The translations under genes and the position numbers were made by a program. The notes beneath the pieces are model-generated. The model ran no database searches, was not told the origin of the DNA, and saw only the letters and a list, made by a program, of their open reading frames with translations. A stretch of 64,000 bases of DNA from Mobula hypostoma. Its lineage: Eukaryota. Shown here in pieces: positions 16,700 through 63,412 of this stretch (positions within the stretch are counted from its first letter, which is position 1; every line of letters starts with the position of its first letter). The stretch lies in NCBI RefSeq assembly GCF_963921235.1, contig NC_086108.1, positions 25,420,001 to 25,484,000 on the forward strand, written 5' to 3'.

Positions 16700-19030
16700 T
16701 ATAGAAGTGGGAAGCTTTTGGTATAAAGTGGTGAGTAATTACCTCAGGTGCTTGGAATGACAATATGAAGTTGAACAAGGCAAGTCTCATTGTTTGACTA
16801 ATTAGAGAGCATTTTATCCAATGGGAGGAAAGTGAGGCTAAGTGGAACAGCATCTGTGGGATGGTGGAGTTCAGACCTTGGTAATGTTTATTTTTTTGCT
16901 GTTCATTCTTATGATTTGTTTTGCTGTGGTCAGGATTGCAGTTAGGGCAGTGGAATGCTCCTTCCATGAGATAGGGGAAGTCAGGGATCTTCAGTCTTCC
17001 TAATGACTACATCCGTGGGCAATCAGATGCAGCTCCTGACAGATTTGGTCAAGGAGGTGGACCTGGATGATCTAAAGATCATAGGAAGCCTCCGAGATAA
17101 GAGTTTTAGTGAGGTGGCTACACTCAAGCTACAGACTTCAGATCGAAGGCTGGTGATCAGGAGAAGGGGAGTAAGCAGTCAGAACAGCGTTCCCCTCTGG
17201 GAATTTGCCTTGATAACAGGTATACCCTTTAGATACTGTTGAGGTAGACATTCTTTAAGCAGCCAGAAGCTGTAGGTAGGCTTCTGGCATTGTGATAGTC
17301 ACAAGGTTCAGTGGGGAAGAGTGAAATCAAAACAGGATAATAGACTTGATAGTGAAGAGGGCAGACAAGAGATTCCGTGACTGCAGAACAGATGCCAGGA
17401 TGATATGTTTTCTCCTAAATGCCAGTGCCAAGGATGTCTGTGAATGGTGGTGGGACCTGAACAGTGAGAGGTTGTTGTACATGTTTGTACAAACTATACA
17501 ACAAATGAAATTATGTAAAATGAGTACAGGGTGTTGGCATAAAGAGTTAAGAAACAGAACCTCAAGGGAAATGATCATCAGGAGTACTCCTGATGACATG
17601 TACTAGCAAGATCATAGATAGAATGACAGGCCACATGGATTGCTGGCTGAGGAGCTGGTACACGGATTCAGGTTCCTGGCCCATTGGGATTTCTTCAATG
17701 ATAGGAGAAACGTATATAAGTGGGATGGGTTATCTGGTGAGGAGAAAACTAAATTGGGTGAGGAAATGTGGCTCAAAGCAGGAGCAAGTAATGGAATAAA
17801 AAATAACCACTGTTAGTATCTCTGGTAATCAGGATAGCCAGAGACACAGCAAAGTCAGGGAATGCAATATTTAGTTCATCTGCTTGTATTTTGAAGCTTG
17901 ACGTCCAGTAATTCAGGCAGACAAACTCAATGTGGATTGGATATAAAGACAAGGATGTTATAGCCATAACATAAGTGTTGCTGAGAGCAGGGCAGGGCTG
18001 GCTGTTCAATATTCTAGGATACAGACAACATAAATACGGGATAAGATAACTGCAGTAATTAGTGATGATATTATTGTGGGATTGTCCAGAGAGGCTATTT
18101 AGGTAGAATTTAGAAACAAGGTGAGAGAAAGCTGTATTCTTCACCATCCTCACCCCACCCCCAATAGTCAGCAGGAATTTCAGAACCAAGTGTGTACAAA
18201 ATTCACCCAGAGTGTTATAAGGGCCTGGATGGGATAGAATTTATCAGCTGTATCCAGGAAATTTTCTTGAGTCAATAACAGGGACCTGCTCAAGAGTGTG
18301 CAGTATGGAGTCTCCCATGAGGGAATGAGACAGGACTAGAAACTGAAGTGGCAGCCAGGCAGAATTTTGTTTTAGCAACCATTATTCTCAATTTTAAGGA
18401 AGTGATGGAAAAGGATAAGACAGGTCCACAGCTTAGCTTCCTAAACTGGAGTAGGGCTAATTTTGAAGGAATTCTGCCAGATCCAGCTGGTTAATTGGCT
18501 GAGTCTATTTAATGGGGGAAAGAAAACAAGTGCAAGTTGGGAGGCCTTTTAAAAGTTTGATATCAAGTGTCCTGCAAAGGTGTGTTCCTGTTAGGGTGAA
18601 AGGTAAACCTGGTAAATCCAGAGAACCTTGATTGACAAGAGATTAAGACTCTGATCAAGGAAAAGGAGTAAGCTCTCATTGAGTTTAGGAGGTCAGGGAC
18701 AAGTTAATTCTTTGACAATAAAAAGATTAACAATACTCTAAGAGGAAAGTTAGAAGGTCAAAGAAGATATGACATGGTAGGTAAGGTTAAGGAAGAGGTT
18801 CTTTATCTATATTAAGTATTTCCAGGGACCTTTCTCACTTGTAAAAGAGTTGGATGTGAATGCACAGGTCTTTTTTTTTGGATGACACAAAATTAGGAGG
18901 TGGTGTTGATAGTGAAGAAGTTCATCCTATTTTACAGGTGGTCTTGATCAGTTGGAGAAGTGGACCAAGGAGTGGCAAATAGATTTTGATAGTAAGTGAG
19001 ATGCAGTTTGGAAAATCAACCAGGGTAGAA
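16700..19030 (+). mobile_element. Ancient, heavily decayed and internally deleted CR1 (ORF1, EN and partial RT remnants)
   Basis: ORF1-like QMQLLTDLVKE and ADKRFRDCRTDARMICFL; EN-like remnants at 17860-18420; 'gatgacacaaaattaggagg' (DDTKLGG) near 18880. Confidence 0.7.
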
Positions 19031-19039
19031 CGTGCAGTG

Positions 19040-22000
19040 AAAAAGACGAAAAGACATAGGAGCAAAATTAGGCCATTTGGCCATTGAGTCTTCTCCGCTA
19101 TTCAATCATGGTTGATCCTTTTTTCTCCTCCTCAGCCTTCTCCATGTAACCTTTGATACCAAGTGCAATCAAGAGCCTATCAATCTCTGTCTTAAATACA
19201 CCTAACGACCTGACCTCCACAGCTGCCTGTGGTAACCAATTCCACAAAATCACCACCCTCTAGCTAAAGAAATTTCTCTGCATCTGTTTTAAATGGACGC
19301 CCCTCTATCCTGAGGCTGTGCCCTCTTGTCCTAGACTTCCCAACCAATGGAAACAACCTTTCCAAATCTACTTTGTCTAGTCCTTTCAACATTCAAAAGT
19401 TTCAATGAGATTGCCCCTCATCTTTCTACATTCCAGTGACTACAGACCCAAACCATCAAACATTCCTGGAATAACCTTTAATTCCTGGAATCATCCTTGT
19501 GAACCTCTTCTGAACCCTCTCCAATGCCAGCACAATTTTTCTCAGATGAAGAGCCCAAAACTGTTCACAATACCTCAAGGTGAGGCCTCACCAGTGCTTT
19601 ACAAATCCTCATCATCACATCCCTGTTCTTATCTTCTAGACCTCTTGAAATGAATGCTAATATTGCATTTGCCTTCCTCATCACCAACTCAACCTGCAAG
19701 TTAACCTTTAGGATGCCCTGCACAAGGACTCCCAAGTCCCTTTGCATCTCAGGTTTCTGGATTTTCTACCCATTTAGAAAATAGCCTGCACATTTATTTC
19801 TACTACCAAAGTGCATGACCGTGCATTTTTCAACATTGTATTTCATTTGTCAATCTCTTGCCCATTCTCTTAATCCAAATCCTTCTGCAGCCTACTTGTT
19901 TCCTCAACACCTGCCCCTCCACCAATCTTCATATCATCTACAAACTTGGCAACAAAGTCACCTATTCCATCTAAATCATTGATATACACCATAAAAAAGA
20001 GCGGTCCTAACTCCAACCTTTGCGGAGCACCACTAGTCATTGGCAGCCAATCAGAAAAGGATCCTTTTATTCTTAATCACTGCCTCCTACTAATGTGCCA
20101 ATGCTCTAACCATGCCAGTAACATTCCTGTAATACCATGGGCTCTTAACTTGGTAAGCAGTCTCATGTGTGGCATCTTGTCAAAGGCCTTCTGAATATCC
20201 AAATAGACAACATCCACTGCATCCCTTTATATACCCTATTTGTAATATCCTCAAAGAAATCCAACAGGCTCATCAGGCAATATTTTCCCTAAGGAAACCA
20301 TATTGATTTTGTCCTATCTTGTGCCGTGTTACCAAGTTCTCCATAACCTCACTCTTAACAATTGTCATCAACATCTTCCAGCCACTGAGGTCAGGCTAAC
20401 TGGTCTATAATTTCCTTTCTTCTGCCTTGCTCCTTTCTGAAAGAGTGGCGTGACATTTGCAATTTTCCATACCTCTGGCACTATTCCAGAGTACAATGAT
20501 TTTTGAAAGATCATTATTAATGCCTCCACAATCTCTACTGCTACCTCTTTCAGAATCCTAGGGTGCAGTTCATCTGGTCCGGGTGACTTATGTACCCTTA
20601 GGTCTTTCAACTTTTTGAGCACCTTCTCCCTTGTAATAGTAACTGCACTCGCTTCTCTTCCCTCACACCCTTCAACATCTGGCATACTGCTGATGTCTTC
20701 CACAGTGAAGACAGATGCAAAGTACTCATTTATTTCATCTGTCATATCCTTGTCACTGGTTATTATTTCTCTGGCCTCATTTTCTACAGGTCCTATATCC
20801 ACACTCGCATTTCTTTTATTTTTTTGCATGTAAAAGCTTTTACTATCCAACTTTGATATTGTTTGCAAGCTTGCTTTCATATTTCATCTTTTCCCTCCTA
20901 ATGATTCTTTTTGTTGTTCTCTGTAGGTATTTAAAGCTTCCCAGTCCCCTATCTTCCCATTAATTTTTGCTTTGTTGTATGCCCTCTTTTGTCTTTACAT
21001 TATCTTTGAGTTCCCTTGTCAGCTGCGGTTGTACTATTTTGTCATTTGAGTATTTCTTTTTTTTTTGAAAGACATCTATCCTGCATCTTCCTCTTCCCCG
21101 CCCCCCCCCGCCAGAAACTCATACCTTTGCTGCTCTGCTGTCAGCTCTGACAGCATTTCCTTCCAATTTGCTTTGACCAACTCCTCTCTCATACCACTGC
21201 AGTTTCCTTTACTCCACTGATATGCTGCAACATCAGACTTTACTTTCTCTCTATTAAATTTCAGCTTGAACTCTATCACATTCTGCTCACTACTCCTAAG
21301 TGTTTTTTTACCTTAAACTCCCTAATTGCCTTCAGTTCATTATGTAACTCCCGGTCCAGTATTGGTGATCCCCTAGAATGTTCAATGACAAATTGCTCTA
21401 AATGCTATCTCATCGGCACGCAACAAACTCCCTCTCTTGAGATACATTACCAACCTAATTTTCCCAACCGACCTGCATGTTAAAATCTCCCATGACTGTC
21501 ATAACATTGCCCTTTCGACACGCCCTTTCTATTTCCAATTGTAATCTGTGGTCCCAGTTACTGTTAGGAGGCCTGTGTTTAGGAGGTCATGTTTTTTGAC
21601 CTCTCCAGTGCGTTCAACACCATCCGCCCTGCTCTGCTGGGGGAGAAGCTGACAGCGATACAGGTGGATGCTTTCCTGGTGTCATGGATACTTGATTACC
21701 TGACTGGCAGACCACAGCACGTGTGCTTGCAACACTGTGTGTTCGACAGAGTGATCAGCAGCACTGGGGCTCCACAGGGGACTGTCTTCTCTCCCTTTCT
21801 CTTCACCATTTACACCTCAGACTTCAACTACCACACAGAGTCTTGTCATCTTCAGAAGTTTTCGGATTACTCTGCCATAGTTGGATGCATCAGCAGGGGA
21901 GATGAGGATGAGTACAGGGCTACAGTAGGAAACTTTGTCACATGGTGTGAGCAGAATTATCTGCAGCTTAATGTGAAAAAGACTAAGGAGCTGGTGGTAG

Positions 22001-23710
22001 ACCTGAGGAGAGCTAAGGTACCAGTGACCCCTGTTTCCATCCAGGGGATCAGTATGGACATGGTGGAGGATTACAAGTACCTGGGAATACGAATTGACAA
22101 TAAACTGGACTGATCAAAGAACACTGAGGTTGTCTACAAGAAGAGTCAGAGCCGTCTCTATTTCCTGAGGAGACTGAGGTCCTTTAACATCTGCTGGACG
22201 ATGCTGAGGATGTTCTATGAGTCTGTGGTGGCCAGTGCTATCATGTTTGCTGTTGTGTGCTGGGGCAGCAGGCTGAGGGTACCAGACACCAACAGGATCA
22301 ACAAACTCATTCGTAAGGCCAGTGATGTTGTGGGGATGAAACTGGACTCTCTCACAGTGGTGTCTGAAAAGAGGATGCTGTCTAAGTTGCATGCCATCTT
22401 GGTCAATGTCTCCCATCCACTACATAATGTACTGGTTGGGCACAGGAGTACATTCAGCCAGAGACTCATTCCACCGAGATGCAGCACAGAGTGTCATAGG
22501 AAGTCATTCCTGCCTGTGGCCATCAAACTTTACAACTCCTCCCTTGGAGGGTCAGACACCCTGAGCCGATAGGCTGGTCCTGGACTTATTTCATAATTTA
22601 CTGGCATAATTTACATATTAGTAGTTAACTATTTATTACTATTTTTCTATTACTATTTATTATTTCCATGACTATTACTATTTACTAATAGTAGTATTAC
22701 TATTGCTATTTCTATTACTATTTATTATTATGGTGCAACTGTAACGAAAACCAAATTCCCCCAGGATCAATAAAGTATGACTATGACTATGTGTTTAACT
22801 GCTGGCAGTGTTCTTTTACCTTTGCAGTTTCTTAACTTGACCAACAAATTCTAAGTTCTCTCCTCATGACCTCTTTGCTTTTCCTTTCCATGTCATTGGT
22901 ACCAATATGTACCAACACATTTGGCTGCTCTCCATCTCCCTTCAAAATGCTGTGGACACGTGCTGAGACACCCCTGACCCCAGCACCTGGGAGCAACATA
23001 CCATCCAGGTGTCCTGTTCATATAAACAGAATCTCCTGGCTGCTGAGTTCCCCATCACTAACGCTCCCCTCTTCTCCCTCTTTCCCTTCTACTCCATGGA
23101 CCCATGCTCAGTGCCAGTAACCTAGTCTCCGTGGCGTTCCCCTGGGAGGTCATCCCTCACAACAGTATCCAAAACAGTATAGAGGGGAATGGCTACAGGG
23201 GTGCTCTGCGCTAGCTGCCTATTCACATTTCCATTTCTCCTGACAGTCACCCAGCTACTCGCCTCCTGCAGCTTGGGGGTGACTACCTCCCTGTAACTCT
23301 GATTGATTATCTCCTCACTCTCCTGTAGAAGCTGAAGGTCATCCAGCTGCTGCTCCAGATTGTAATACTGTCTCCCAGGACAGCAGCATCTGGCATGAGG
23401 AACACGTTTATTACGCTTGATTCAGTAAGAGGAGAAGAAAAAGGGAAACTTAACAGAAGCTTACCCAGCGCCAATGCCTCTTTTGAGCCAAAGTATTCTT
23501 TGAGCCAAAACCTGACACTCCTACTCTCACCACTTGCCAACTCCCAACAATGGTCACCCTGCTTGTCCCTTCTGTACTTTTATTTAAGTTGCTGTGCTCT
23601 GCTTCTACCGCTAATTGGACTGCCGGCTTGAGCATGAATGCCCGTGAAGCTCTCCTTTTAAACGAGGGTCGCTGACCTGTGAGAACCCTCGTCGCTGCGC
23701 TCTGCTCCAG
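19040..23710 (-). mobile_element. Decayed near-full-length CR1 with internal deletions, split by a Rex/Babar insertion at 21582-22789
   Basis: INEYFASVFT, KSPGPD, NYRPVSLTS and MIEFKL motifs; ORF1 remnants at 22860-23400; 5'UTR-like sequence to ~23710; 3' tail near 19045. Confidence 0.85.
21582..22789 (+). mobile_element. Young 5'-truncated Rex1/Babar-type LINE with an 8-bp TSD
   Basis: RT motifs FFDLSSAFNTI, GAPQGTVFSPFLF and QKFSD; ORFs 21589-22113 and 22201-22572 share a frame with one TGA; AATAAA + (TATGAC)n tail; TGTGTTTA at 21574-21581 and 22790-22797. Confidence 0.93.
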
Positions 23711-35632: not shown

Positions 35633-35678
35633 CAGACGTGTGACGTCAACAGGACAGCGTGGAGAGTTTAAAAAGGAG
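35633..35678 (+). promoter_or_regulatory. Putative internal promoter of the CR1 (CRE palindrome + TATA-like)
   Basis: TGACGTCA at 35641-35648, preceded by GACGTG; TTTAAAAAGG at ~35668; a similar TTTAAAAGGAG occurs in the 5' end of the minus-strand copy near 23650. Confidence 0.4.
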
Positions 35679-35970
35679 ACCACCCTATACAGCGGGCAGC
35701 TGTTGGAGCGGGCAGTGGAGTGAGCGGTAGCAGAGTGTAGGGCTTTGGCTTCAACGGACCTCGGCAGTAAACGGGAGGAGGCAAGAGCGAAGCACCAACT
35801 CTTTTTTTTCTCCCCCCCCCACCTTTCACGAATCGGCCTGGACAGACAGGAACAGCAGGGCTCTCACAGCCAACGGTACGAGCTAACGGTTTAAAAAGTT
35901 CATCTGTTTGGCAAGGTAAGTGGGTGAGTAGACTTATTTTTCCTGTTTCATTCCTGTAGACTTAGGTAGC

Positions 35971-36905
35971 ATGCCTGCAGAGTTAATGCTTTGTTCAGGG
36001 TGCCAGATGTGGGAATCCTGGGAGACCTCCAGCCTCCCTGATGGCCACATCTGCGCCAGGTGCACTGAGATGCAGCTCCTCAGAGACCATGTTAGGGATC
36101 TGGAGCTGCAGCTTGATGACCTACTGCTTATCAGGGAAAGTGAAGAGGTGATAGACAGGAGCTACAGGGAGGTAGTCATCCCTAGGCTACAGGGGTCAGA
36201 AAACTGGGTCACTGTCAAGAGAGGGAAGGGAAATACCCGGATAGTGGAGAGCACCCCTGTGGCTGTCCCCCTCAGCAACAGATATCTTGTTCTGGATGCT
36301 GTTGAGGGGGATGACCTGACAGGGGACGCCCACGGTGACCGGGTCTCTGGCACTGAGCCTGGTGCTGTTGTGCAGGAGAGGAGGAGGGAGAAGAGGGATG
36401 CAGTAGTCATAGGGGATTCCATAGTCAGGGGAATGGACAGGAGATTCTGTGAGCCTGATAGAGATACCTGCATGGTGTGTTACCTCCCAGGTGCCAGGGT
36501 ACGGGATGTCTCGGATCGGGTCCTGAATATTCTGAAGGGGGTGGGTGAGCAGCCAGTTGTCTTGGTACATGTTGGTACCAATGACATAGATAGGACAAAG
36601 GAGGAGGTCCTGAAGAGAGATTTCCAGGAGTTAGGAAGGAAGCTGAGAAGCAGGACCTCCAGGGTAGTAATCTCGGGATTGCTACCTGTGCCACGTGCTA
36701 GCGAGGGCAGGAATAGTAGGATCAGGCAGATGAATGTGTGCTAAGAGACTGGTGCAGGGGGCAGGGCTTCAGATTCTTCGATAATTGGGATCTCTTCTGG
36801 GGGAAGTATGACCTATTCAAACAGGACAGGTTACACCTGAACCCGAAGGGGACCAACATCCTGGCGGGAGAGTTTAACAGAGCTGTGAGGGAGGGTTTAA
36901 ACTAA
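35971..36905 (+). pseudogene. CR1 ORF1p: zinc finger/leucine zipper + SGNH esterase, frameshifted near 36740
   Basis: CSGC...CARC, heptad Leu, IGDSIVR and HVGTND; DRLHLNPKG...GLN* continues in another frame to TAA at 36903-36905. Confidence 0.9.
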
Positions 36906-39305
36906 TTTGACAGGGGGATGGGAACTGGAATGACAGAGCGGAGGAAGGGGAAAACAGAAATAAATCTAAGATAGTGAGCAATAAAGATGTCAGGAAGGAC
37001 AGCAGGTGATGGGGCAAATTTGTAGCCATTGGGATGAGTTGCAGTGCAATAAAGTTGCAGTGAAATCAAAGCGAAAAGTACCAAATACTGGTCTTAAGGT
37101 GTTATACTTAAATGCACACAGCATAAGGAATAAGGTGGGTGATCTTGTTGTACAGCTACAGATTGGCAGGTATGACATTGTGGCTATCACTGAGACGTGG
37201 CTAAAGGATGCATGTCTCTGGGAGCTGAACGTCCAAGTATACACGGTGTATTAGAAGGATAGGAAGGTAGGCAGAGGGGGAGGCATGGCTTTATTGGTAA
37301 GAAATGATATTAAATCATTAGAAAGAGGTGATATAGGATTGGAAGGTGCAGAATCTTTATGGGTTGAGCTAAGAAATCGGAGGGGTAAAAGGACCCTGAT
37401 GGCAGTTATTTATAGGCCTCCAAACAGCTGCAGTGCTGTGGACTACAAATTACAACAGGAAATAGAAAAGGCTTGTCAGACGGGCAGTGTTATGATAACT
37501 GTGGGAGATTTTAACATGCGAGTGGATTGGGAAAATTAGGTCGGCACTGGATCTCAAGAGAAAGAATTTGTAGAATGTCTGCGAGATGGCTTTTTAGAAC
37601 AGCTTGTTGTTGAGCCCACTAGGGGATCGTCTGTACTGGATTGGGTATTGTGTAATCAACCGGTGGTGATTAGAGAGATAGAGGTGAAGGAACCCTTAGG
37701 AGACAGTGATCATAACATGATTGAGTTCACTGTGAAATTTGAAAAAGAGAAGCTGACATCTGATGTGTCGGTATTTCAGTGGAGTAAAGGAAACTACAGT
37801 GGCATGAGAGAGGAACTGGCCAAAGTTGACTGGAAAGGGACACTTGTGGGAAAGACAGCAGAGTAGCAATAGCTGGAGTTTATGCGAGAAGTGAGGAAGG
37901 TGCAAGATAGGTATATTCCAAAAAAGAAGAAATTTTTGAATGGAAAAAGGATGTTACCGTGGTTAACAAGAGAAGTCAAAGCCAAAGTTAAAGCAAAGGA
38001 GAGGGCATACAAGGAAGCAAAAATTAGTGGGAAGACAGAGGATTGGGAGGTTTTTAAAACCTTACAAAAGGAAACTAAGAAGGTCATTAAGAGGGAAAAG
38101 ATTAACTATGAAAGGAAGCTAGCAAATAATATCAACGAGGATACTAAAAGCTTTTTCAAGTATATAAAGAGTAAAAGACAGGTGAGAGTAGATATAGGAC
38201 CAATAGAAAATGATGCTGGAGAAATTGTAATGGGAGATAAGGAGATGGTAGAGGAACTGAATGAGTATTTTGCATCAGTCTTCACTGAGGAAGACATCAG
38301 CAGTATACTGGACACTCAAGGGTGGCAGGGAAGAGAAGTGTGTGCAGTCACAATTACAACAGAGGAAGTACTCAGGAAGCTGAATAGTCTAAAGGTAGAT
38401 AAATCTCCCGGACCAGATGGAATGCACCCGCGTGTTCTGAAGGAAGTAGCTGTGGAGATTGCGGAGACATTAGTGATGATCTTTCAAAAGTCGATAGATT
38501 CTGGCATGGTTCCGGAGGACTGGAAGATTGCAAATGTCACTCCGCTATTTAAGAAGGGGGCAAGGAAGCAAAAAGGAAATTATAGACCTGGTCGCTTGAC
38601 ATCGGTGGTTGGGAAGTTGTTGGAGTCGATTGTCAAGGATGAGGTTACAGAGTACCTGGAGGCATATGACAAGATAGGCAGAACTCAGTATGGATTCCTG
38701 AAAGGAAAATCCTGCCTGACAAACCTATTACAATTTTTTGAGGAAATTACCAGTAGGCTAGACAAGGGAGATGCAGTGGATGTTGTATATTTGGATTTAC
38801 AGAAAGCCTTTGACAAGGTGCCATACATGAGGCTACTTAACAAGATAAGAGCCCATGGAATTACGGGAAAGTTACATACGTGGATACAGCGTTGGCTGAT
38901 TGGCAGGAAACAGAGAGTGGGAATAAAGGGATCCTATTCTGGTTAGCTGCTAGTTACCAGTGGTGTTCAATAGGGGTCCGTGTTGGGGCCACTTCTTTTT
39001 ACATTGTACATCAACGATTTGGATTATGGAATAGATGGCTTCGTGGCTAAGTTTGCTGATGATACGAAGATAGGTGGAGGGGCCGGTAGTGCTGAGGAAA
39101 CGGAGAGTCTGCGGAGAGACTTGGATAGATTGAAAGAATGGACAAAGACGTGGCAAATGAAATGCAATGTTGAAAAGTGTATGGCTATGCACTTTGGCAG
39201 AAGAAATAAACGGGCAGACTATTATTTAAATGGGGAAAGAATTCAAAGTTCTGATGTGCAACAGGACTTGGGAGTGCTCGTACAGGATATCCTTAAGGTT
39301 AACCT

Positions 39306-39414
39306 TGGAGGAATCTGAAGTGGGGGTTTATATGGGAGGCAGGGTTTGAGGGTCGGCACAACATTGTGGGTCGAAGGGCCTGTACTGTGCTGTACTGTTC
39401 TATGTTCTATGTTC
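39306..39414 (+). mobile_element. 109-bp 3' end of a different CR1 subfamily inserted into the CR1, with a 6-bp TSD
   Basis: TAACCT at 39300-39305 and 39415-39420; stem-loop plus (GTTCTAT)n tail. Confidence 0.88.
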
Positions 39415-39974
39415 TAACCTCCAGGTTGAGTCAGTAGTGAAGGTGGTGAATGCAATGTTGGCATTCATTTCTACAGGAATAGAGTATAGGAGCAGGGATG
39501 TGATGTTGAGGCTCTATAAGGCGCTGGTGAGACCTCACTTGGAGTACTGTGGGCAGTTTTGGTCTTCTTATTTAAGAAAGGATATGCTGACGTTGGAGAG
39601 GGTACAGAGAAGATTCACTGGAATGATTCCGGGAATGAGAGAGTTAACATATGAGGAATGTTTGTCTGCTCTTGGACTGTATTCCTTGGAGTTTAGAAGA
39701 ATGAGGGGAGACTTCATAGAAACATTTGGAAAGGCGCCCATTCAGAACAGAAATGTGAAGAAATTTTTTTAGTCAGAGGGTGAGGAATCTATGGAATTTG
39801 TTGCCACGGGCAGCAGTGGAGGCCAAGTCATTGGGTGTATTTAAGGTTATGGTGAGAAGGCAGGGGAGTAGACTAAATGGGAGAATGGATCAGCTCATGA
39901 TAAAATGGCGAAGCAGACTCGGTGGGCCAAATGGCCGACTTCTGCTCCTTTGTCTTATGGTCTAAATCAATCAT

Positions 39975-50436: not shown

Positions 50437-51467
50437 GTTCAGAGAGAAATAGGCAAAATACAGGCAGACGGGTCCAGCTCAGGAAAGCACATTGGTCAGC
50501 ATAGAAAAGTTGGGCTGAAGAGGCATTTTCTGTGCTCATGTAACTCTCTGACTCTAAAAGTTAAAGTGGGAAAACTGACTACAAAAGAATGTTTTCATAA
50601 ATGAATGATTACTCCCCACAAAGAACCACTAAAAATCGTTTCACTTTGATGTGAATTCATAAATGTTGAATTCATTCCAAACTGACACTAATGTTAGTTT
50701 TTTTTAAAGGAAATTGGGCTCTTGCAGCTAAGTAATTTATCTTAATCATCTACAACTAGCTATCTTAACTTCGAAAAAAGTACCCCAAGACATCTTACAA
50801 AAGGAAAACAAAATCAATATCTATTTTATCTTTAAAAAATACAGCTTATGATAATAATCCAGTGAGTGATGTGTGAAGGTTTGCCTGATTCTGGTACAAT
50901 TGAATTCTGTGAATTGCCATCTCTCCAAGGAATACATATGTATTGGTGATTAAACAATACTAAGCAAGAATGCTGATAGAGCCACATATTTTATCGGATA
51001 GAATTTAATTTAACGTATTAACTCTGTTGTATTATGGCAGAATACAGTGACAACTATTGGCTGAATTGATCCGTGTTTCATTATTTATACAGCAGGGAAG
51101 AGATTGAAAGGATTTAGCTGGGAAAATTTGCCATATTGCTGAACTGTAGAATGATCTGCTGGTTTAAAAGGTAGCATATCGAGCAGATTTGAATTAGCAG
51201 TGTACAATACAAATGTCCATTAATCCTAGTTTTACTTCACCAATCTACAAATCATTTTATTAAAATGCTTATTTTGACCTCATTTATATATTGAATTTTA
51301 TATGAGAGAAAGCTTGTTTGATTGTCCTTAGACCTTACAGAAAAAGGAATCTGGTCCAGTAAAGTTACATATGCAGATACATATAATTTATCCACTTTGC
51401 AGAATGTCATATTCACTTATGCCGTGATAAGGAGGACTCAGTTCATCACGATTAAAACCCTCCCAAC

Positions 51468-53825
51468 AGAAATTTGGATGGCTCAGGGACAGGAATGGTT
51501 ACTTCAAGTGCTGGGTTTTAGATGTTTCAGAACGGACAGGGAGGAAGGCAAAAGAGGTGGGGGTGTGGCACTGTTGATCAGAGATAGTGTCACAGCTGCA
51601 GGAAAGGTGGACGTCATGGAGGGATTGTCTACGGAGTCTCTGTGGGTGGAGGTTAGGAACAGGAAGGAGTCTATAACTTTACTGGGTGTTTTTTATAGGC
51701 CGCCCAATAGTAACAGGGATATTGCGGAGCAGACAAGGAAACAGATCCTGGAAAGGTGTAATAATAACAGAGATGTCGTGATGGGAGAATTTAATCTCCC
51801 AAATATCAATCGGCATCTCCCTAGAGCAAGGGGCTTTGATGGGGTAGAGTTTGTTAGGTGTGTTCATGGAGGTTTCTTGGCACAATATGTAGATAAGCCT
51901 ACAAGAGGAGAGACTGTACTTGATTTGGTATTGGGAAATGAACCTGGTCAGGTGTCAGATCTCTCAGTGGGAGAGCATTTTGGAGATAGTGATCACAATT
52001 CTATCTCCTTTACCATAGCATTGGAAAAAGATAGGAACAGACAAGCTAGAAAAGTATTTAATTAGAGTAAGCGTCTATCAGGCAGGAAATTGGAAGCTTA
52101 AATTGGGAACAGATGTTCTCAGGGAAAAGTACGGAAGAAATGTGGCAAATGTTCAGGGGATAGTTCTGTGGAGTTCTGCATAGGTACATTCCAATGAGAC
52201 AGGGAAGTTATGGTAGGCTACAGGAACCATGGTGTACAAAGGCTGTAATAAATCTAGTCAAGATGAAAAGAAAAGCTTACAAAAGGTTCAGAGAGCTAGC
52301 TAATATTAGATTAGAAGATCTAGAAGATTAGATCTAGAAGATTATAAGGCTAACAGGAAGGAGTTAAGAAGGAAATTAGGAGAGCCAGAAGGGGCCATGA
52401 GAAGTTGGGCCGGATTAAGGAAAACCCCAAGGCATTCTGCAAGTATGTGAAGACCAGTGAGTCTTACTTTAGTGGTTGGTAAGTTGATGGAGAAGATCCT
52501 GAGAGGCAGGAATTATGAACATTTGGAGAAGTATAATCTGATTAGGAATAGTCAGCTTGGCTTTGTCAAGGGCAGGTCGTGCCTTATGAGCCTGATTAAA
52601 TTTTTTGAGGATGTGACTAAACACATTGATAAAGGAAGAGTAGTAGATGTAGTGTATATGGATTTCAGCAAGGCATTTGATAAGGTACCCCATACAAGGC
52701 TAATTGAGAAAATAAGGAGGCATGGGATCCAAGGGGACATTGCTTTGTGGATCCAGAACTGGCTTGCCCACAGAAGGCAAAGAGTGGTTGTAGACGGGTC
52801 ATATTCTGCATCGAGGTCGATGACCAGTACTGTGCCTCAGGGATCTGTTCTGGGACCCTTAATCTTCGTGAGTTTTATAAATGACCTGTATGAGGAGGTG
52901 GAGGGATGGGTTGGTAAGTTTGCTGATGACACAAAGGTTGGAGGTGTTGTGGATAGTGCGGAGGGCTGTCAGAGGTTACAGCGGTACATTGATAGGATGC
53001 AAAACTGGGCTGAGAAGTGGCAGATGGAGTTCAACCCAAATAAGTGTGAAGTGGTTCATTTTGGTAGGTCAAATATGATGGCAGAATATAGTATTAATGG
53101 TAAGACTCTTGGCAGTGTGGAGGAGCAGGGGGATCTTGGAGTCCGAGTCCACATGACGCTCAAAGCATCAGTGCAGGTTGACTTTATGGTTAAGAAGGCA
53201 TACGGTATATTGGTCTTCATCAATCGTGGAATTCAATTTAGGAGCTGAGAGGTAATGTTGCAACAATATAGGACCCTGGTCAGACCCCACTTGGAGTACT
53301 GTGCTCAGTTCTGGTTGCCTCACTACAGGAAGGATGTGGAAATAATAGAAAGGGTGCAGAAGAGATTTACAAGGATGTTGCCTGGATTGGGGAGCATGCC
53401 TGATGAAAACAAGTTGAGTGAACTTGGCCTTTTCTCCTTGGAGCGACAGAGGATGAGAGGTGCCCTGATAGAGGTGTATAAGATGATGAGAGGCATTGAT
53501 CGTGTGGATAGTCAGAGGCTTTTTCCCAGGGCTGAAGTGGTGGCCACAAGAGGACACAGGTTTAAGGTGCTGGGGAGTAGGTACAGAGGAGATGTCAGGG
53601 GTAATTTTTTTACGCAGAGAGTGATGAGTGCGTGGAATGGGCTGCCAACAACAATGCTAGAGGCAGATACGATAGGATCTTTTAAGAGACTTTTGGATAG
53701 GTAGATGGAGCTTAGAAAAATAGAGGGCTATGGGTAAGCCTAGTAATTTCTAAGGTAGGGACATGTTCGGCACAACTTTGTGGGCCAAAGGGCCTGTATT
53801 GTGCTGTGGGTTTTCTATGTTTCTA
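51468..53825 (+). mobile_element. CR1 ORF2 (EN, RT, 3'UTR) with an internal deletion near 52456
   Basis: GGGVALLI, FYRPPN, SDHN, YMDFSKAFDKV, PQGSVLGP, KFADDTK and PHLEYC; stem-loop and tttctatg tail. Confidence 0.93.
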
Positions 53826-56108: not shown

Positions 56109-58106
56109 CATTGGTCCCCAACCACTGGGCCGCAGACCGGTACCAGGCCGCAAAGCATGTGCTACCGGGCCGCGAGGAAACAATATGATTTGGCGGTATG
56201 AAACAATGTGAGTCAGCTACACATTTCCTCATTCCCTGTCATGCCCACTGTTGAACTTGAATGCACACGAGGTCATTACTCACGCGAGGTCAACTACTCG
56301 ATGAGTAAAAAACAAACGTCGCTTGAGAGTTTCCTTGGAAGAGATGGTAGGGGTCATAAAAGGCCTAACGATTATGGTAACGCAGAGACAGCTGAGGCCG
56401 AGACTGCTAAAAAAAGAAAGCTTCCTTCAACAGAAAATACGACGAGTCATACATAAAATATGGCTTTATTGTGACTGGTGACTTGCACGCTCCAAGCCCC
56501 CTGTGTGTGATATGTGGGGACAAGCTGTCTAATGAGGCAATGAAGCCCTCAAAACTGCATTGGAACCTTGAGTCCAGCACCCTGCACTTAAAGACAAACC
56601 CGTTGAGTTTTTTGAGCGGAAAAAACGTGATCAAGCGGGACAGAAGCAAGTGCTGAGAGTCACCACCTCCACAAATGCTGCTGCTCTGAGAGCGTCGTAC
56701 TTAGTGGCTAGCCGTATTGCTAAGGCTAAGAAGCCTTTCACTGTTGGTGAAGAATTGATTCTGTCTGCTGCCAAGGACATGTGCTGTGAACTGTTGGGAG
56801 AAGCTGCAGCTAACAAGATGGCACAGGTTTCTCTTTCAGCTACCACAGTTTCAAGGAGAATCGATGACATAGTGGAAGATATCAAAGCACAGCTGTTGGA
56901 ACGGCTTAATGAGTCTGGTTTCACTACCCGACTCAAAGAGGTTGCTCCTGACTGCCAGTCTACACACTGTGTCACACACAAGGAAATGCCGACTAGCCGA
57001 AAAATGTCACCTGATCTTAACAGCATATTGAGTGACATTGTTGAAGTTATCAATCATTTCAAAGCAAAAGATCTGAACTCACGTCTGTTTGAGCAGTTTT
57101 GCGAGGAAATGGATGCAGAGCACAAATGCTGACTCTTACACATTGAGGTCAGGTGGCTATCAAGGGGGAGAGCCCTGGCCAGGGTTTTTGAGATAAGAGA
57201 GCAGCTACAGAGATTTCTTTCAGGAAAAAAGTCACCACTGGCAGCACACTTCAGTGACAAGGAGTGGATAGCAAAACTCGCTTATCTGTGTGACATCTTC
57301 AACCTTCTCAATGAACTCAATTTGTCACTTCAGGGGAGAATGAAAACTGTCTTCAAGTTGGCAGATAAAGTGTCTGCTTTCACAGGCAAACTGGAACTGT
57401 GGGGACGGCGAGTGGACAGGGGCATATTTGACACGTTCCCAACATTAGCTGGGATTTTGGGAGAGACTGAGGCTGCACCGTCCTTCTCACAGCTGGTGCG
57501 CGAACACCTATCTGCACTGTTGACAGAATTCGAGCGTTACTTCCGAACCGCAAATGACCCAAGACGTGCAAAGGAATGGGTCCATGACCCATTTGTGAAT
57601 GTCCCCGGTGAATCATCCATGTCAACGCGAGAAGAAGATCAACTCATCGAGCTTGCAAATGACGGTGGGCTGAAAAGTATGTTTGATATAACATCCCAGC
57701 TGGCATTCTGGATCAAAGTCAGGGCTGAATATCCTGAGATAGCCACGAAAGCACTGAAAACATTGCTTCCATTTCCAACATCATATCTCTGCGAAGCGGA
57801 GTTTTCTGCAATGAATGCAACGAAAACTAAATTGCAGAATAGACTGGACGTAAAGAATCCCCTTATAATTGACTTATCACTATATTCATGCGAGGAAAAT
57901 ATGCGTTGTGTGTTTAATATTAAATTCGTTAGATAAACCCTTTTAGAAATGAAATTGAGTGTATTCGCCACTGATAAGTGACTTATAGTTGACTTACCAT
58001 CTATATTCTGGTCATGATTAACACACCCCCCTCCCCATCGGCCGGTCCTCAAGAATATTGTCAATATTAAACCGGTCCACGGTGCAAAAAAGGTTAGGGA
58101 CCCCTG
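56109..58106 (+). mobile_element. hAT Charlie/Buster-type DNA transposon, internally deleted
   Basis: TIRs CATTGGTCCCCAACC / GGTTAGGGACCCCTG; BED-like CVICGDKLSNEAMKPSKL, KPFTVGEELI, HCVTHKE, EVRWLSRG and FPTSYLCEAEFS; TSD only partial (GAAATGAC / CAATAGAC). Confidence 0.92.
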
Positions 58107-59536: not shown

Positions 59537-59644
59537 TCATAGAAACATAGAAACATAGAAACATAGAAAATAGGTGCAGGAGTAGGCCATTCGGCCCTTC
59601 GAGCCTGCACCGCCATTTATTATGATCATGGCTGATCATCCAAC

Positions 59645-62600
59645 TCAGAACCCAGCCTTCCCTCCATACCCCGTGACCCCTGTAGCCACAAGGGCCATAT
59701 CTAACTTCCTTTTAAACATAGCTAATGAACTGGCCTCAACAGTTTGCTGTGGCAGAGAATTCCACAGATTCACCACTCTCTGTGTGAAGAAGTTTTTCCT
59801 AACCTCGGTCCTAAAAGGCTTCCCCTCTATCCTCAAACTGTGACCCCTCGTTCTAGACCTCCCCAACATCGGGAACAATCTTCCCGCATCTAGCCTGTCC
59901 AATCCCTTTAGGATCTTATACGTTTCAATCAGATCCCCCCTCAATCTTCTAAATTCCAACGAGTACAAGCCCAGTTCATCCAGTCTTTCTTCATATGAAA
60001 GACCTGCCATCCCAGGAATCAATCTGGTGAACCTTCTTTGTACTCCCTCTATGGCAAGGATGTCTTTCCTCAGATTAGGGGACCAAAACTGCACACAATA
60101 CTCCAGGTGTGGTCTCACCAAGGCCTTGTACAACTGCAGTAGTACCTCCCTGCTCCTGTACTCGAATCCTCTCGCTATAAATGCCAGCATACCGTTCGCC
60201 TTTTTCACCGCCTGCTGTACCTGCATGCCCACTTTCAATGACTGGTGTATAATGACACCCAGGTCTCGTTGCACCTCCCCTTTTCCTAATCGGCCACCAT
60301 TCAGATAATAATCTGTTTTCCTATTTTTGCCACCAAAGTGGATAACTTCACATTTATCCACATTAAATTGCATCTGCCATGAGTTTGCCCACTCACCCAA
60401 CCTATCCAAGTCACCCTGCATCCTCTTAGCATCCTCCTCACTGCTAACACTGCCACCCAGCTTCGTGTCATCCGCAAACTTGGAGATGCTGCATTTAATT
60501 CCCTCATCCAAGTCATTAATATATATTGTAAACAACTGGGGTCCCAGCACTGAGCCTTGCGGTACCCCACTAGTCACCGCCTGCCATTCTGAAAAGGTCC
60601 CGTTTATTCCCACTCTTTGCTTCCTGTCTGCTAACCAATTCTCCACCCACACCAATACCTTACCCCCAATACCATGTGCTTTAAGTTTGCACACTAATCT
60701 CCTGTGTGGGACCTTGTCAAAAGCCTTTTGAAAATCCAAATATACCACATCCACTGGTTCTCCCCTATCCACTCTACTAGTTACATCCTCAAAAAATTCT
60801 ATGAGATTCGTCAGACATGATTTTCCTTTCACAAATCCATGCTGACTTTGTCCGATCATTTCACCGCTTTCCAAATGTGCTGTTATCACATCCTTGATAA
60901 CTGACTCCAGCAGTTTCCCCACCACCGACGTTAGGCTAACCGGCCTATAATTCCCCGGTTTCTCTCTCCCTCCTTTTTTAAAAAGTGGGGTTACATTAGC
61001 CACCCTCCAATCCTCAGGAACTAGTCCAGAATCTAACGAGTTTTGAAAAATTATCACTAATGCATCCACTATTTCTTGGGCCACTTCCTTAAGCACTCTG
61101 GGATGCAGACCATCTGGCCCTGGGGATTTATCTGCCTTCAATCCCTTCAATTTACCTAACACCACTTCCCTACTAACATGTATTTCGCTCAGTTCCTCCA
61201 TCTCACTGGACCCTCTGTCCCTTACTATTTCTGGAAGATTATTTATGTCCTCCTTAGTGAAGACAGAACCAAAGTAATTATTCAATTGGTCTGCCATGTC
61301 CTTGCTCCCCATAATCAATTCACCTGTTTCTGTTTGCAGGGGACCTACATTTGTCTTTATCAGTCTTTTCCTTTTTACATATCTATAAAAGCTTTTACAG
61401 TCCGTTTTTATGTTCTCTGCCAGTTTTCTCTCATAATCTTTTTTCCCCTTCCTAATTAAGCCCTTTGTCCTCCTCTGCTGAACTCTGAATTTCTCCCAGT
61501 CCTCAGGTGAGCCACTTTCTCTGGCTAATTTGTACGCTACTTCTTTGGAATTGATACTATCCCTAATTTCTCTTGTCAGCCACGGGTGCACTACCTTCCT
61601 TGATTTATTCTTTTGCCAAACTGGGATGAACAATTGTTGTAGTTCATCCATGCAACCTTTAAATGCCTGCCATTGCATATCCACCGTCAATCCTTGAAGT
61701 GTCATTTGCCAGTCTATCTTAGCTAATTCATGTCTCATACCTTCAAAGTTACCCCTCTTTAAGTTCAGAACCTTTGTTTCTGAATTAACTACGTCACTCT
61801 CCATGTTAATGAAGAATTCCACCATATTATGGTCACTCTTACCCAAGGGGCCTCTCACGACAAGATCGCTAATTAACCCTTCCTCATTGCTCAAAACCCA
61901 GTCCAGAATAGCCTGCTCTCTAGTCGGTTCCTCGACATGTTGGTTCAAAAAACCATCCCGCATACATTCCAAGAAATCCTCTTCCTCAGCACCTTTACCA
62001 ATTTGGTTCACCCAGTCTACATGTAGATTGAAGTCACCCATTATAACTGCTGTTCCTTTATTGCACACATTTCTAATTTCCTGTTTAATACCATCTCCGA
62101 CCTCACTACTACTGTTAGGTGGCCTGTACACAACTCCCAGCAGCGTCTTCTGCCCCTTAGTGTTACGCAGCTCTACCCATATCGATTCCACATCTTCCCG
62201 GCTTATGTCCTTCCTTTCTATTGCGTTAATCTCTTTTTTAACCAGCAACGCCACCCCACCTCCCCTTCCTTCGTGTCTATCCCTCCTGAATATTGAATAT
62301 CCCTGAACGTTGAGCTCCCATCCCTGGTCACCCTGGAGCCATGTCTCTGTGATCCCAACTATATCATAATCATTAATAACAATCTGCACTTTCAATTCAT
62401 CCACCTTATTACGAATGCTCCTTGCATTGACACATAAAGCCTTCAGGCGCTCTTTTACAACTCTCTTAGCCCTTTTTAATGCTTGCCCTGGATTTGTCGG
62501 CCTGCCACTTTTACTTTTCCCCTTTGTACTTTTTGCTTCTACGCTCACTTTACACTCCTCTGTCTCTCTGCACTGGTTCCCATCCCTCTGTTGTGAACTA

Positions 62601-62665
62601 ACCTCCTCACACCTAGCCGCTTTAATTTGATTCCCACCCCCCAACCATTCTAGTTTAAAGTCACC
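59645..62665 (-). CDS. CR1 ORF2p: APE endonuclease + reverse transcriptase (open frame; no AUG before codon 202 of the track ORF)
   Basis: NARS, ITETW, YRPP, GDFN and SDHN (EN); YLDFQKAFD, GVPQGSVLGP and FADD (RT); the track ORF starts at TTG 62644 and the frame stays open up to TGA at 62666-62668. Confidence 0.95.
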   Translation of the reverse strand, partial: GDFKLEWLGGGNQIKAARCEEVSSQQRDGNQCRETEECKVSVEAKSTKGKSKSGRPTNPGQALKRAKRVVKERLKALCVNARSIRNKVDELKVQIVINDYDIVGITETWLQGDQGWELNVQGYSIFRRDRHEGRGGGVALLVKKEINAIERKDISREDVESIWVELRNTKGQKTLLGVVYRPPNSSSEVGDGIKQEIRNVCNKGTAVIMGDFNLHVDWVNQIGKGAEEEDFLECMRDGFLNQHVEEPTREQAILDWVLSNEEGLISDLVVRGPLGKSDHNMVEFFINMESDVVNSETKVLNLKRGNFEGMRHELAKIDWQMTLQGLTVDMQWQAFKGCMDELQQLFIPVWQKNKSRKVVHPWLTREIRDSINSKEVAYKLARESGSPEDWEKFRVQQRRTKGLIRKGKKDYERKLAENIKTDCKSFYRYVKRKRLIKTNVGPLQTETGELIMGSKDMADQLNNYFGSVFTKEDINNLPEIVRDRGSSEMEELSEIHVSREVVLGKLKGLKADKSPGPDGLHPRVLKEVAQEIVDALVIIFQNSLDSGLVPEDWRVANVTPLFKKGGREKPGNYRPVSLTSVVGKLLESVIKDVITAHLESGEMIGQSQHGFVKGKSCLTNLIEFFEDVTSRVDRGEPVDVVYLDFQKAFDKVPHRRLVCKLKAHGIGGKVLVWVENWLADRKQRVGINGTFSEWQAVTSGVPQGSVLGPQLFTIYINDLDEGIKCSISKFADDTKLGGSVSSEEDAKRMQGDLDRLGEWANSWQMQFNVDKCEVIHFGGKNRKTDYYLNGGRLGKGEVQRDLGVIIHQSLKVGMQVQQAVKKANGMLAFIARGFEYRSREVLLQLYKALVRPHLEYCVQFWSPNLRKDILAIEGVQRRFTRLIPGMAGLSYEERLDELGLYSLEFRRLRGDLIETYKILKGLDRLDAGRLFPMLGRSRTRGHSLRIEGKPFRTEVRKNFFTQRVVNLWNSLPQQTVEASSLAMFKRKLDMALVATGVTGYGGKAGF

Positions 62666-63412
62666 TCAGTAGCCCCCGCTAATCTCCCTGCCAGGATATT
62701 GGTCCCCCTAGGATTTAAGTGTAACCCGTCCTTTTTGTACAGGTCACACCTACGCCAAAAGAGGTCCCAATGATCCAAAAACTTGAATCCCTGCCCCCTG
62801 CTCCAATCCCTCAGCCACGCATTTATCCTCCACCTCATCGCATTCCTACTCTCACTGTCGCGTGGCACAGGCAGTAATCCCGAGATTACTACCTTTGCGG
62901 TCCTTTTTCTCAACTCCCTTCCTAGCTCCTTATATTCTTCTTTCAGGACCTCATCCCTTTTCCTACCTATGTCATTGGTACCTATATGTACCAGGACCTC
63001 TGGCTCTTCACCCTCCCACTTCAGGATATCTTGGACACGATCAGAAATATCCCGGACCCTGGCACCAGGGAGGCAAACTACCATCCGAGTCTCTGGACTG
63101 CGTCCACAGAATCGCCTATCTGACCCCCTTACTATCGAGTCCCCTATCACAACTGCCCTCCTCTTCCTTGCCCTACCCTTCTGAGCTACAGGGCCAGACT
63201 CTGTGCCGGAGGCAGGGCCACTGTCGCTTCCCCCGGGTAAGCTGTCCCCCCCAACAGTACTCAAACAGGAGTACCTGTTGTTAAGGGGCACAGCCGCCGG
63301 GGTACTCCTCATCACCTGCCTTTTCCCCTTCCCTCTCCTAACCGTGACCCACTTGTCTGCCTCCCGTGGCCCCGGCGTGACCACCTGCCTTCCACTCCTC
63401 TCTATCACCTCC
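62650..63412 (-). CDS. CR1 ORF1p C-terminal part: SGNH/GDSL esterase domain (N-terminus lost by truncation)
   Basis: IGDSIVR, PGA, HIGTND and DGLHLN blocks intact; homologous to ORF1 at 35971. Confidence 0.92.

Follow-up and report, generated by a model that had tools for sequence, protein, structure and literature searches.

The window, as the whole stretch of 64,000 nucleotides is called here, contains a copy of a CR1 retrotransposon on the minus strand. Its ORF1 (62650..63411) codes for an SGNH/GDSL esterase with the motifs GDS, GTND and DGLH (PF13472, E 3e-16). The adjoining ORF2 frame (59645..62665) is stop-free for 1006 amino acids and comprises an APE endonuclease (PF03372, PF14529) and then a reverse transcriptase (PF00078). 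A short 3′ UTR and a tail of 8-nt tandem repeats (59538..59644, tail at 59570-59538) complete the element. LINEs of the CR1 clade end in short tandem repeats, not in poly(A), and the window copy matches this trait. The order of the ORF2 domains, the esterase of ORF1 and the tandem-repeat 3′ end are those of the esterase type of the CR1 clade, and the sequence around the junction is similar to CR1-labelled rows of PMC13343379. Near 63411 the copy is truncated at its 5′ end, so that approximately the first 58 codons of ORF1, including the zinc finger, are missing. The initial annotation had described a zinc finger-esterase: the esterase was recovered, whereas the Cys pairs of the zinc finger are absent from the truncated copy and present in P0001 (98% identical) and in a second CR1 family of the window. 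This family, on the plus strand (35971..39845), is diverged and decayed (ORF1 59.5%, ORF2 53.6% identical) and its ORF1 starts with the zinc finger.

At the end of ORF1 the minus strand reads ACT TTA AAC TAG, as initially annotated. The last two codons contain the slippery heptamer U_UUA_AAC (62653..62659) in X_XXY_YYZ register, directly followed by the stop codon TAG (62650..62652). Two codons upstream of the heptamer, a TGA (62666..62668) closes the ORF2 frame. Since this frame is open from 62665 down to 59645, ORF2 lies in the -1 frame and overlaps ORF1 by 16 nt, which agrees with the original description. The heptamer is situated within this overlap in the 0-frame register. It is the sole in-register X_XXY_YYZ among the 244 codons of ORF1 and the 1006 codons of ORF2, and it occupies the last possible position of ORF1. 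The string TTTAAACTA was found four times in the window versus 0.94 expected, only two of the four being CR1 junctions. In the second family the heptamer (36896-36902) is followed by a TAA stop and a G5 run (36913-36917). Upstream of the heptamer, the -1 frame is open for only 1-6 codons in the junctions compared.

Conservation of the heptamer at other CR1 junctions, a check proposed together with the initial annotation, was found in the second family, in the metagenome loci L001, L003, L006 and the degenerate L024, and in consensus rows of vertebrates. L002 carries the variant G_UUA_AAC, and six loci (L004, L010, L013, L017, L022, L026) possess a different junction. In supplementary table 2 of PMC13343379, 17 of 23 matches to TTTAAACTA lie at the ORF1/ORF2 junction as judged by eye, with 11 species codes. 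Anchoring on an upstream ORF1 motif gave seven rows of the same table; the junction is visible in six of them, a subset of the 17, and all six contain the heptamer. Six synonymous spellings of Leu-Asn-TAG yielded 14 matches in this table, none of them at a junction by eye; synonymous Leu-Asn codons, which had been named beforehand as an argument against frameshifting, were not encountered at its junctions in these spellings. As the lineages are related, the junction counts are not independent events. Four-fold sites of ORF2 are saturated between the window copy and L001 (32/126), L002 (33/117) and the second family (35/120); those of ORF1 are unsaturated between the two window families (31/49). 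TTA accounts for 3-23% of Leu codons, and from codon usage T-TTA-AAC is expected in just 0.3-2.1% of cases per lineage. The nucleotides of the heptamer are conserved beyond the need of the protein. Among 40 of 85 variant rows for contigs from four runs against 62450-62850, none falls at 62620-62662, which is not counted as evidence. Five viral-contig scans and one genome-contig scan returned no loci, a second genome scan gave four loci, none with an esterase-type junction, and in the accessible portion of supplement file 2 of PMC4316615 no junction was found.

At the protein level, 128 of 150 listed cluster representatives have a scorable ORF1 tail. Leu-Asn forms the C-terminus in 50 of them, where 0.5 would be expected; the tails of these are 25-39 aa long. 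The other 78 end differently. The residue preceding Leu-Asn is one whose codon is unable to end in U (K/E/Q/M/W) in 1/50 cases against a background of 0.155, while control positions have 12, 15, 9 and 4 such residues of 50. After removal of redundancy, the value is 1/31 (P=0.022). P0020, P0043, P0147 and P0245, in which the esterase continues into Phe-Lys-Leu of the -1 frame, were considered as natural fusions and set aside, since an indel in one copy or an error of the gene model may account for them.

An open, fast-evolving linker of ~70 codons in the ORF2 frame (62446..62649, minus strand) separates the junction from the endonuclease; it lacks an ATG in the window copy. In all four intact loci the linker, 39-90 codons long, has no stop in the ORF2 frame and 2-10 stops in each other frame. 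The 13 linker variants listed comprise 11 that replace a residue, a silent one and one that would create a stop if not in phase with the adjacent variant (the phase is not visible); given 11 residue-changing variants, no constraint at the protein level is seen on the linker. The first Met of ORF2 is residue 209 from the TGA boundary, downstream of NARS (80), ITETW (105) and YRPP (180). Codon 202 had been given before; the number is corrected, but the Met still follows the endonuclease motifs and the argument is unaffected. That ordinary AUG initiation would miss part of the endonuclease applies to the window copy, but not as a general rule, since L001, L003 and L002 have in-frame ATGs upstream of the endonuclease, at codons 4, 22 and 28 from the heptamer, respectively. 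In close relatives of the window family, two variants (62523, 62548) create a linker ATG. At the ORF1 stop or in its vicinity the window copy has no AUG, the first one being at residue 209; only L001 has an AUG there, 2 nt past the stop.

From rays to crocodiles the same heptamer is found at the end of ORF1 with ORF2 one base back, and the second protein is therefore likely to arise by slippage. Judged from sequence comparison, programmed -1 ribosomal frameshifting at the CR1 junction probably yields ORF2 as part of an ORF1-ORF2 fusion. This interpretation is favoured because the heptamer is kept at the nucleotide level between lineages with saturated synonymous sites, and because its location follows the ORF1 stop rather than a set point of the fold. 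With the linker open and in frame, comparative support for the frameshift reading first put forward is strong. Most ribosomes would end translation at the UAG, with the esterase protein as product. In a minority, the tRNAs for Leu and Asn would shift from UUA AAC back to UUU AAA, so that the stop is bypassed, and these ribosomes would translate the linker and then the endonuclease and reverse transcriptase, giving products in a ratio like that of Gag to Gag-Pol. The transframe junction had been drawn as Leu/Phe-Lys; canonical tandem slippage would instead yield ORF1 through Leu-Asn, followed by Leu-Glu-Trp in the new frame. The pause would most likely come from a G run 10 nt downstream, acting as a weak two-tier quadruplex or as a protein-binding site, and the adjacent stop possibly adds to it.

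This candidate stimulator is a G6-U-G3 run (62633..62642, minus strand) starting 10 nt after the heptamer. A G-rich tract had been placed about 6 nt downstream, where the first GG is indeed located; the conserved run, however, begins at 10 nt. At least five G starting at this distance are present in 6/7 aligned junctions, and most vertebrate junctions have a G5-N1-2-G3 run there, while elsewhere G|GGG|G makes up just 2-10% of Gly codons. Stimulators of programmed -1 frameshifting typically lie about 5-9 nt 3′ of the heptamer. A conserved local 3′ hairpin or pseudoknot was not found (z=0.31), the alignment fold has no pairs 3′ of the G run, and the junctions compared share no position of a long-range pairing partner. 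The G-quadruplex suggested earlier as stimulator is predicted, but with just two tiers and in three of seven folds. According to the available part of PMC3919603, G-quadruplexes 3′ of UUUAAAC, a standard reporter slippery site, stimulate -1 frameshifting in reporters at an optimal spacing of 6-8 nt, which the conserved run at 10 nt exceeds.

Termination-reinitiation of the SART1/L1 type, with a stop at UAG and a -1 restart on a nearby AUG or non-AUG codon, would turn the heptamer and the G run into a reinitiation signal. CUA, the codon overlapping the stop, is not a known near-cognate start codon, which counts against this mechanism, even though it has the geometry of an AUGA stop-start and a UUG follows five codons on. 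In one lizard consensus, UGA creates a CUG in the -1 frame. The overlap is short and the stop adjacent, and AUG-independent reinitiation may be compatible with the lack of an AUG near the stop in the window copy. In several relatives (L001, L002, L003) an in-frame ATG precedes the endonuclease, and reinitiation therefore keeps some probability; the position of the ATG varies, though (codon 4, 22, 28 or none). Two other LINEs are known for termination-reinitiation, one of them, SART1, having a structure downstream (PMC5972666, as far as its accessible text goes). For ORF2 of mammalian LINEs, initiation independent of AUG is the option favoured in the available section of the Atkins review (PMC5009743). 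However, reinitiation gives no reason to expect a canonical X_XXY_YYZ exactly in register or the G_UUA_AAC variant, and the mechanism is regarded as unlikely.

Less probable still is an element outside decoding, such as an internal promoter, a CUAG splice acceptor or a packaging or protein-binding site, ORF2 being translated from an RNA of its own or from a spliced one. In its favour, two dogfish CR1 consensus rows contain TTTAAACTA in the 5′ UTR as well, and a stretch resembling a splice donor is present in the 5′ UTR of the second window family. On the other hand, UAA junctions (second window family, several consensus rows) lack the AG, there is no pyrimidine tract, the window copy offers no ATG at which translation of a separate ORF2 RNA would start, and in intact loci the motif is always in the codon register of ORF1 and -1 to ORF2. 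Constraint on the protein only, in which the esterase C-terminus needs Leu-Asn and the codons are inherited or reflect local bias, is already disfavoured and the most improbable of the explanations. Leu-Asn stands at tail position 25-26 in 32/50, yet it stays at the stop with tails of 25, 27, 32 or 39 aa and is absent from most homologues; the scarcity of TTA and the lack of synonymous spellings at junctions speak against it as well.

Programmed frameshifting at a LINE junction has a precedent. In the excerpt available of PMC5911963, ORF2 of Dictyostelium TRE5-A and TRE3-A is said to require a -1 frameshift. By this description they resemble CR1 as two-ORF LINEs with an APE-RT ORF2 and a -1 shift, but they belong to another clade and have another ORF1, whereas CR1 has an esterase ORF1, U_UUA_AAC next to the stop and a G run 3′ of it. 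The frameshift signals of coronavirus 1a/1b and retroviral gag-pol share with CR1 the in-register X_XXY_YYZ and, probably, the fusion of a structural ORF to a polymerase ORF. As a reporter site, UUUAAAC comes from coronaviruses. In contrast to these viral signals, the CR1 site is hosted by a LINE, and neither a pseudoknot nor a stable hairpin was found downstream of it. SART1 and mammalian L1 have, as CR1 probably does, a bicistronic RNA with ORF2 translation coupled to ORF1; in contrast to their overlapping stop-start or 63-nt spacer, the CR1 copy has no AUG at the stop and has a slippery heptamer (PMC5972666, same portion). The canonical vertebrate CR1 elements with esterase ORF1 (PMC13343379, PMC3905857) have the same architecture and their consensus rows share the junction. 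The word 'frameshift' is absent from the main texts of both papers, in which the junction signal is undescribed. A literature search, whose coverage excluded some older CR1 papers, found no report of frameshifting in CR1.

How ORF2 of LINEs is translated is a long-standing question, to which L1 and SART1 give partial answers only, and the conserved -1 site makes it testable by one experiment. The CR1 group provides the dominant retrotransposons of most vertebrates, as stated in the accessible text of PMC13343379. If frameshifting applies, CR1 ORF2 annotations with a downstream ATG start are truncated, CR1 stoichiometry is retrovirus-like and a natural G-rich, hairpin-free stimulator may exist. 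Tentatively, and with somewhat more doubt than confidence, the junction may be an ancient, animal-wide recoding cassette. Its parts would be a heptamer, a stop and, always equally far downstream, a G5-N2-G3 run that needs no pseudoknot and acts through a bound protein or as a two-tier quadruplex, with heptamers swapped among U_UUA_AAC, G_UUA_AAC, G_GGA_AAC and A_AAA_AAC and a Gag-Pol-like fusion as product. Such a cassette would rank with the most widespread frameshift signals of vertebrate genomes, and the fusion would tether the reverse transcriptase to a lipid-binding esterase. Matches to GGGAAACTA/GTTAAACTA in the published table are not at junctions, no longer fused form of P0111 was found on searching, and the codon test is not significant for the Gln-Gly-Asn and x-Lys-Asn classes alone (P 0.09 and 0.04; non-redundant 0.11 and 0.07). 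At the protein level only, Gln precedes Gly-Asn in 9/9 ORF1s with this ending, and x-Lys-Asn is found near the ORF1 end in 14.

The ORF1/ORF2 junction of the CR1 copy on the minus strand has the arrangement described in the initial annotation. ORF1, an SGNH esterase according to Pfam, ends with ACT TTA AAC TAG (heptamer at 62659-62653, stop at 62652-62650), and ORF2 is open in the -1 frame from 62665 to 59645, preceded by TGA at 62668-62666. It encodes 1006 amino acids comprising an APE endonuclease and a reverse transcriptase (Pfam), and an 8-nt repeat tail forms the 3' end of the copy. Apart from this heptamer, the 244 ORF1 and 1006 ORF2 codons contain no X_XXY_YYZ sequence in register. The zinc finger that had been assigned to ORF1 together with the esterase was not found in this copy, whose 5' end is missing near 63411; it is present in P0001, a 98% identical relative annotated in the ray Mobula hypostoma, which makes a ray the probable host. 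A second copy of the same family, 99% identical and 5'-truncated, is located at 9672-11475 (minus strand) and shows recent activity.

From the anatomy and conservation of the junction we infer that -1 slippage at the heptamer probably generates an ORF1-ORF2 fusion. Most ribosomes on ORF1 would terminate at its stop, while a fraction would slip by -1 with the Leu and Asn tRNAs on the heptamer, bypass the stop and yield an esterase-linker-endonuclease-RT protein.

The junction signal is real and deeply conserved. Within the 400 nt per cell viewed of supplementary table 2 of PMC13343379, where the junction is hidden in most full-length rows, TTTAAACTA occurs 23 times. Judged by eye, 17 of these matches are at ORF1/ORF2 junctions, in rows spanning 11 species codes, and the remaining six lie elsewhere; TTTAAACTG occupies the junction in two more rows. 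Since a search with TTTAAACTA presupposes the motif, the search was anchored instead on an upstream ORF1 motif, which gave seven rows of the same partly visible table, six with a visible junction and all six with the heptamer. Synonymous Leu-Asn variation, held in the initial annotation to speak against frameshifting, did not appear: six Leu-Asn-TAG spellings gave 14 matches there, none at a junction by eye, as far as TAG spellings go. Two dogfish CR1 consensus 5' UTRs (rows 891 and 896) also contain TTTAAACTA, with GGGAAACTA close behind. The chance of T-TTA-AAC arising from codon usage is 0.003-0.021 per lineage. The 11 species codes presumably denote sharks, rays, a chimaera, bowfin, a teleost, coelacanth, a frog and crocodilians. 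Comparison of this copy with L001 (32/126), with L002 (33/117) and with the window's second CR1 family (35/120) shows saturation at the four-fold sites of ORF2; saturation is not reached between L001 and L003 (46/77) or between the ORF1s of the two window families (31/49).

A metagenome scan yielded 48 loci, 16 of which, picked by ORF2 match or best ORF1 scores, were inspected in the region where the esterase match ends. U_UUA_AAC was found at the junction of four: L001, L003 and L006, each followed by TAG, and the degenerate L024. In L002 the junction is G_UUA_AAC-TAG. L007 and L008 stop short of the junction; L005, L011 and L012 are differently arranged or without ORF2. The heptamer is absent in six loci (L004, L010, L013, L017, L022, L026), where ORF2 lies beyond a stop, in five of them without a change of frame. 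In these five esterase-ORF1 LINEs of another type (L004:1815-1825; L010:1585-1595; L017; L022; L026) just one stop separates ORF1 from ORF2: TGA-C in L004, where about 45 open codons precede the first ATG, and TAG in the others; stop readthrough and reinitiation are candidates for them. L050:300-370 belongs to a LINE with a non-esterase ORF1 whose overlap with ORF2, in the -1 frame, is approximately 17 open codons long. Vertebrate-type CR1 sequence in bacterial records labelled Pseudomonas and Aeromonas (P0024, L049) is probably host contamination.

Constraint on the ORF1 protein might also preserve the heptamer. In a first search, 47 of 87 homologues had a tail that could be scored, and 39 of these end in Leu-Asn. 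A second survey, of the 150 best representatives after clustering at 50%, gave 50 Leu-Asn ends among 128 scorable tails, versus 0.5 expected; the query profile itself ends in Leu-Asn and thus favours such proteins among the top matches. However, the tails vary in length (25, 26, 27, 32 and 39 aa), and therefore Leu-Asn tracks the stop rather than the fold. K, E, Q, M or W, residues without any codon that could provide the first U, precede Leu-Asn in 1/50 tails (P=0.002; non-redundant set 1/31, P=0.022) and occupy neighbouring positions in 12, 15, 9 and 4 of 50. Protein constraint is the least plausible explanation, and a motif unrelated to decoding is scarcely more credible. Other tails may conceal other slippery sites. 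At the protein level, nine tails ending in Gly-Asn, each preceded by Gln (P0111, P0119, P0131, P0134, P0148, P0153, P0158, P0187, P0209), hint at G_GGA_AAC, and 14 proteins with x-Lys-Asn near the C-terminus (P0121 and relatives) at A_AAA_AAC; Phe-Phe-Arg or Phe-Leu-Gly ends might hide U-rich heptamers. Only 1/22 His-Pro-block proteins (L004-like) ends in Leu-Asn.

A more serious alternative, though still an unlikely one, is that ORF2 is made by termination-reinitiation. The claim that ORF2 lacks an early Met holds for this copy, where the first Met lies beyond the endonuclease motifs NARS, ITETW and YRPP, at residue 209 and not at codon 202, but it fails for some relatives, which have ATG at codon 4 (L001), 22 (L003) or 28 (L002). 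At 62523 and 62548, variants in close relatives give rise to an ATG within the linker; 11/13 linker variants are non-silent, and 15/27 ORF1 variants are silent. On the side of slippage, the -1 frame upstream of the heptamer is open for only 1-6 codons in 7/7 junctions, and therefore Phe-Lys-Leu cannot begin an ORF2 started at an upstream ATG. The linker of 4/4 intact loci is open throughout in the ORF2 frame, and every other frame holds 2-10 stops; a stop-free linker would arise by chance with probabilities of 0.014, 0.011, 0.089 and 0.33.

Concerning a stimulator of slippage, no stable hairpin was detected 3' of the heptamer (z=0.31). An alignment of five junctions revealed no conserved structure on that side, and no long-range pairing partner occurred at a shared position. 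In 6/7 aligned junctions five or more consecutive G begin 10 nt past the heptamer (7 nt in L002), with GGG usually following after 1-2 nt. By G4Hunter score, this run ranks in the top 1.5% of windows in 6/7 loci. Quadruplexes 3' of UUUAAAC stimulate -1 frameshifting, with a best spacer of 6-8 nt (PMC3919603). The suspected G-quadruplex is predicted with two tiers and forms part of the predicted fold in 3/7 loci. Some viral frameshift sites are stimulated by proteins and, by analogy, a protein-bound G run may be the stimulator, on an equal footing with a quadruplex.

Among other LINEs, TRE5-A and TRE3-A are reported to require -1 frameshifting (PMC5911963), and SART1 and L1 employ termination-reinitiation (PMC5972666). 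Titles and abstract starts searched in the non-subscription literature revealed no CR1 frameshifting, which does not establish its absence from print, and 'CR1 + LINE + ORF2 + slippery' matched no paper there. 'Frameshift' does not occur in the visible part of PMC13343379, nor 'CR1' in the first 300,000 of 449,034 characters of PMC5009743; parts of PMC11303007, PMC3905857, PMC4120745, PMC11835228 (first 300,000 characters), PMC5006619 and PMC4316615 (supplement file 2) were also searched for terms.

The second CR1 family (35971-39845, plus strand) is decayed, its ORF1 and ORF2 being 59.5% and 53.6% identical to this copy. Its junction reads GGT TTA AAC TAA at 36896, and its linker carries a frame break. 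The 5' UTR (35660-35970, plus strand) contains a splice-donor-like stretch just upstream of the ORF1 ATG, and similar stretches occur in shark rows in the visible part of supplementary table 2 of PMC13343379. Other families have left decayed CR1-like fragments at 17337-17732, 22850-23319, 19056-21604, 51466-53734 and 6871-8168, all without a readable junction. At 56572-57936 (plus strand), a decayed DNA transposase without Pfam matches is present in two in-frame pieces, which by their motifs we take to be hAT-like.
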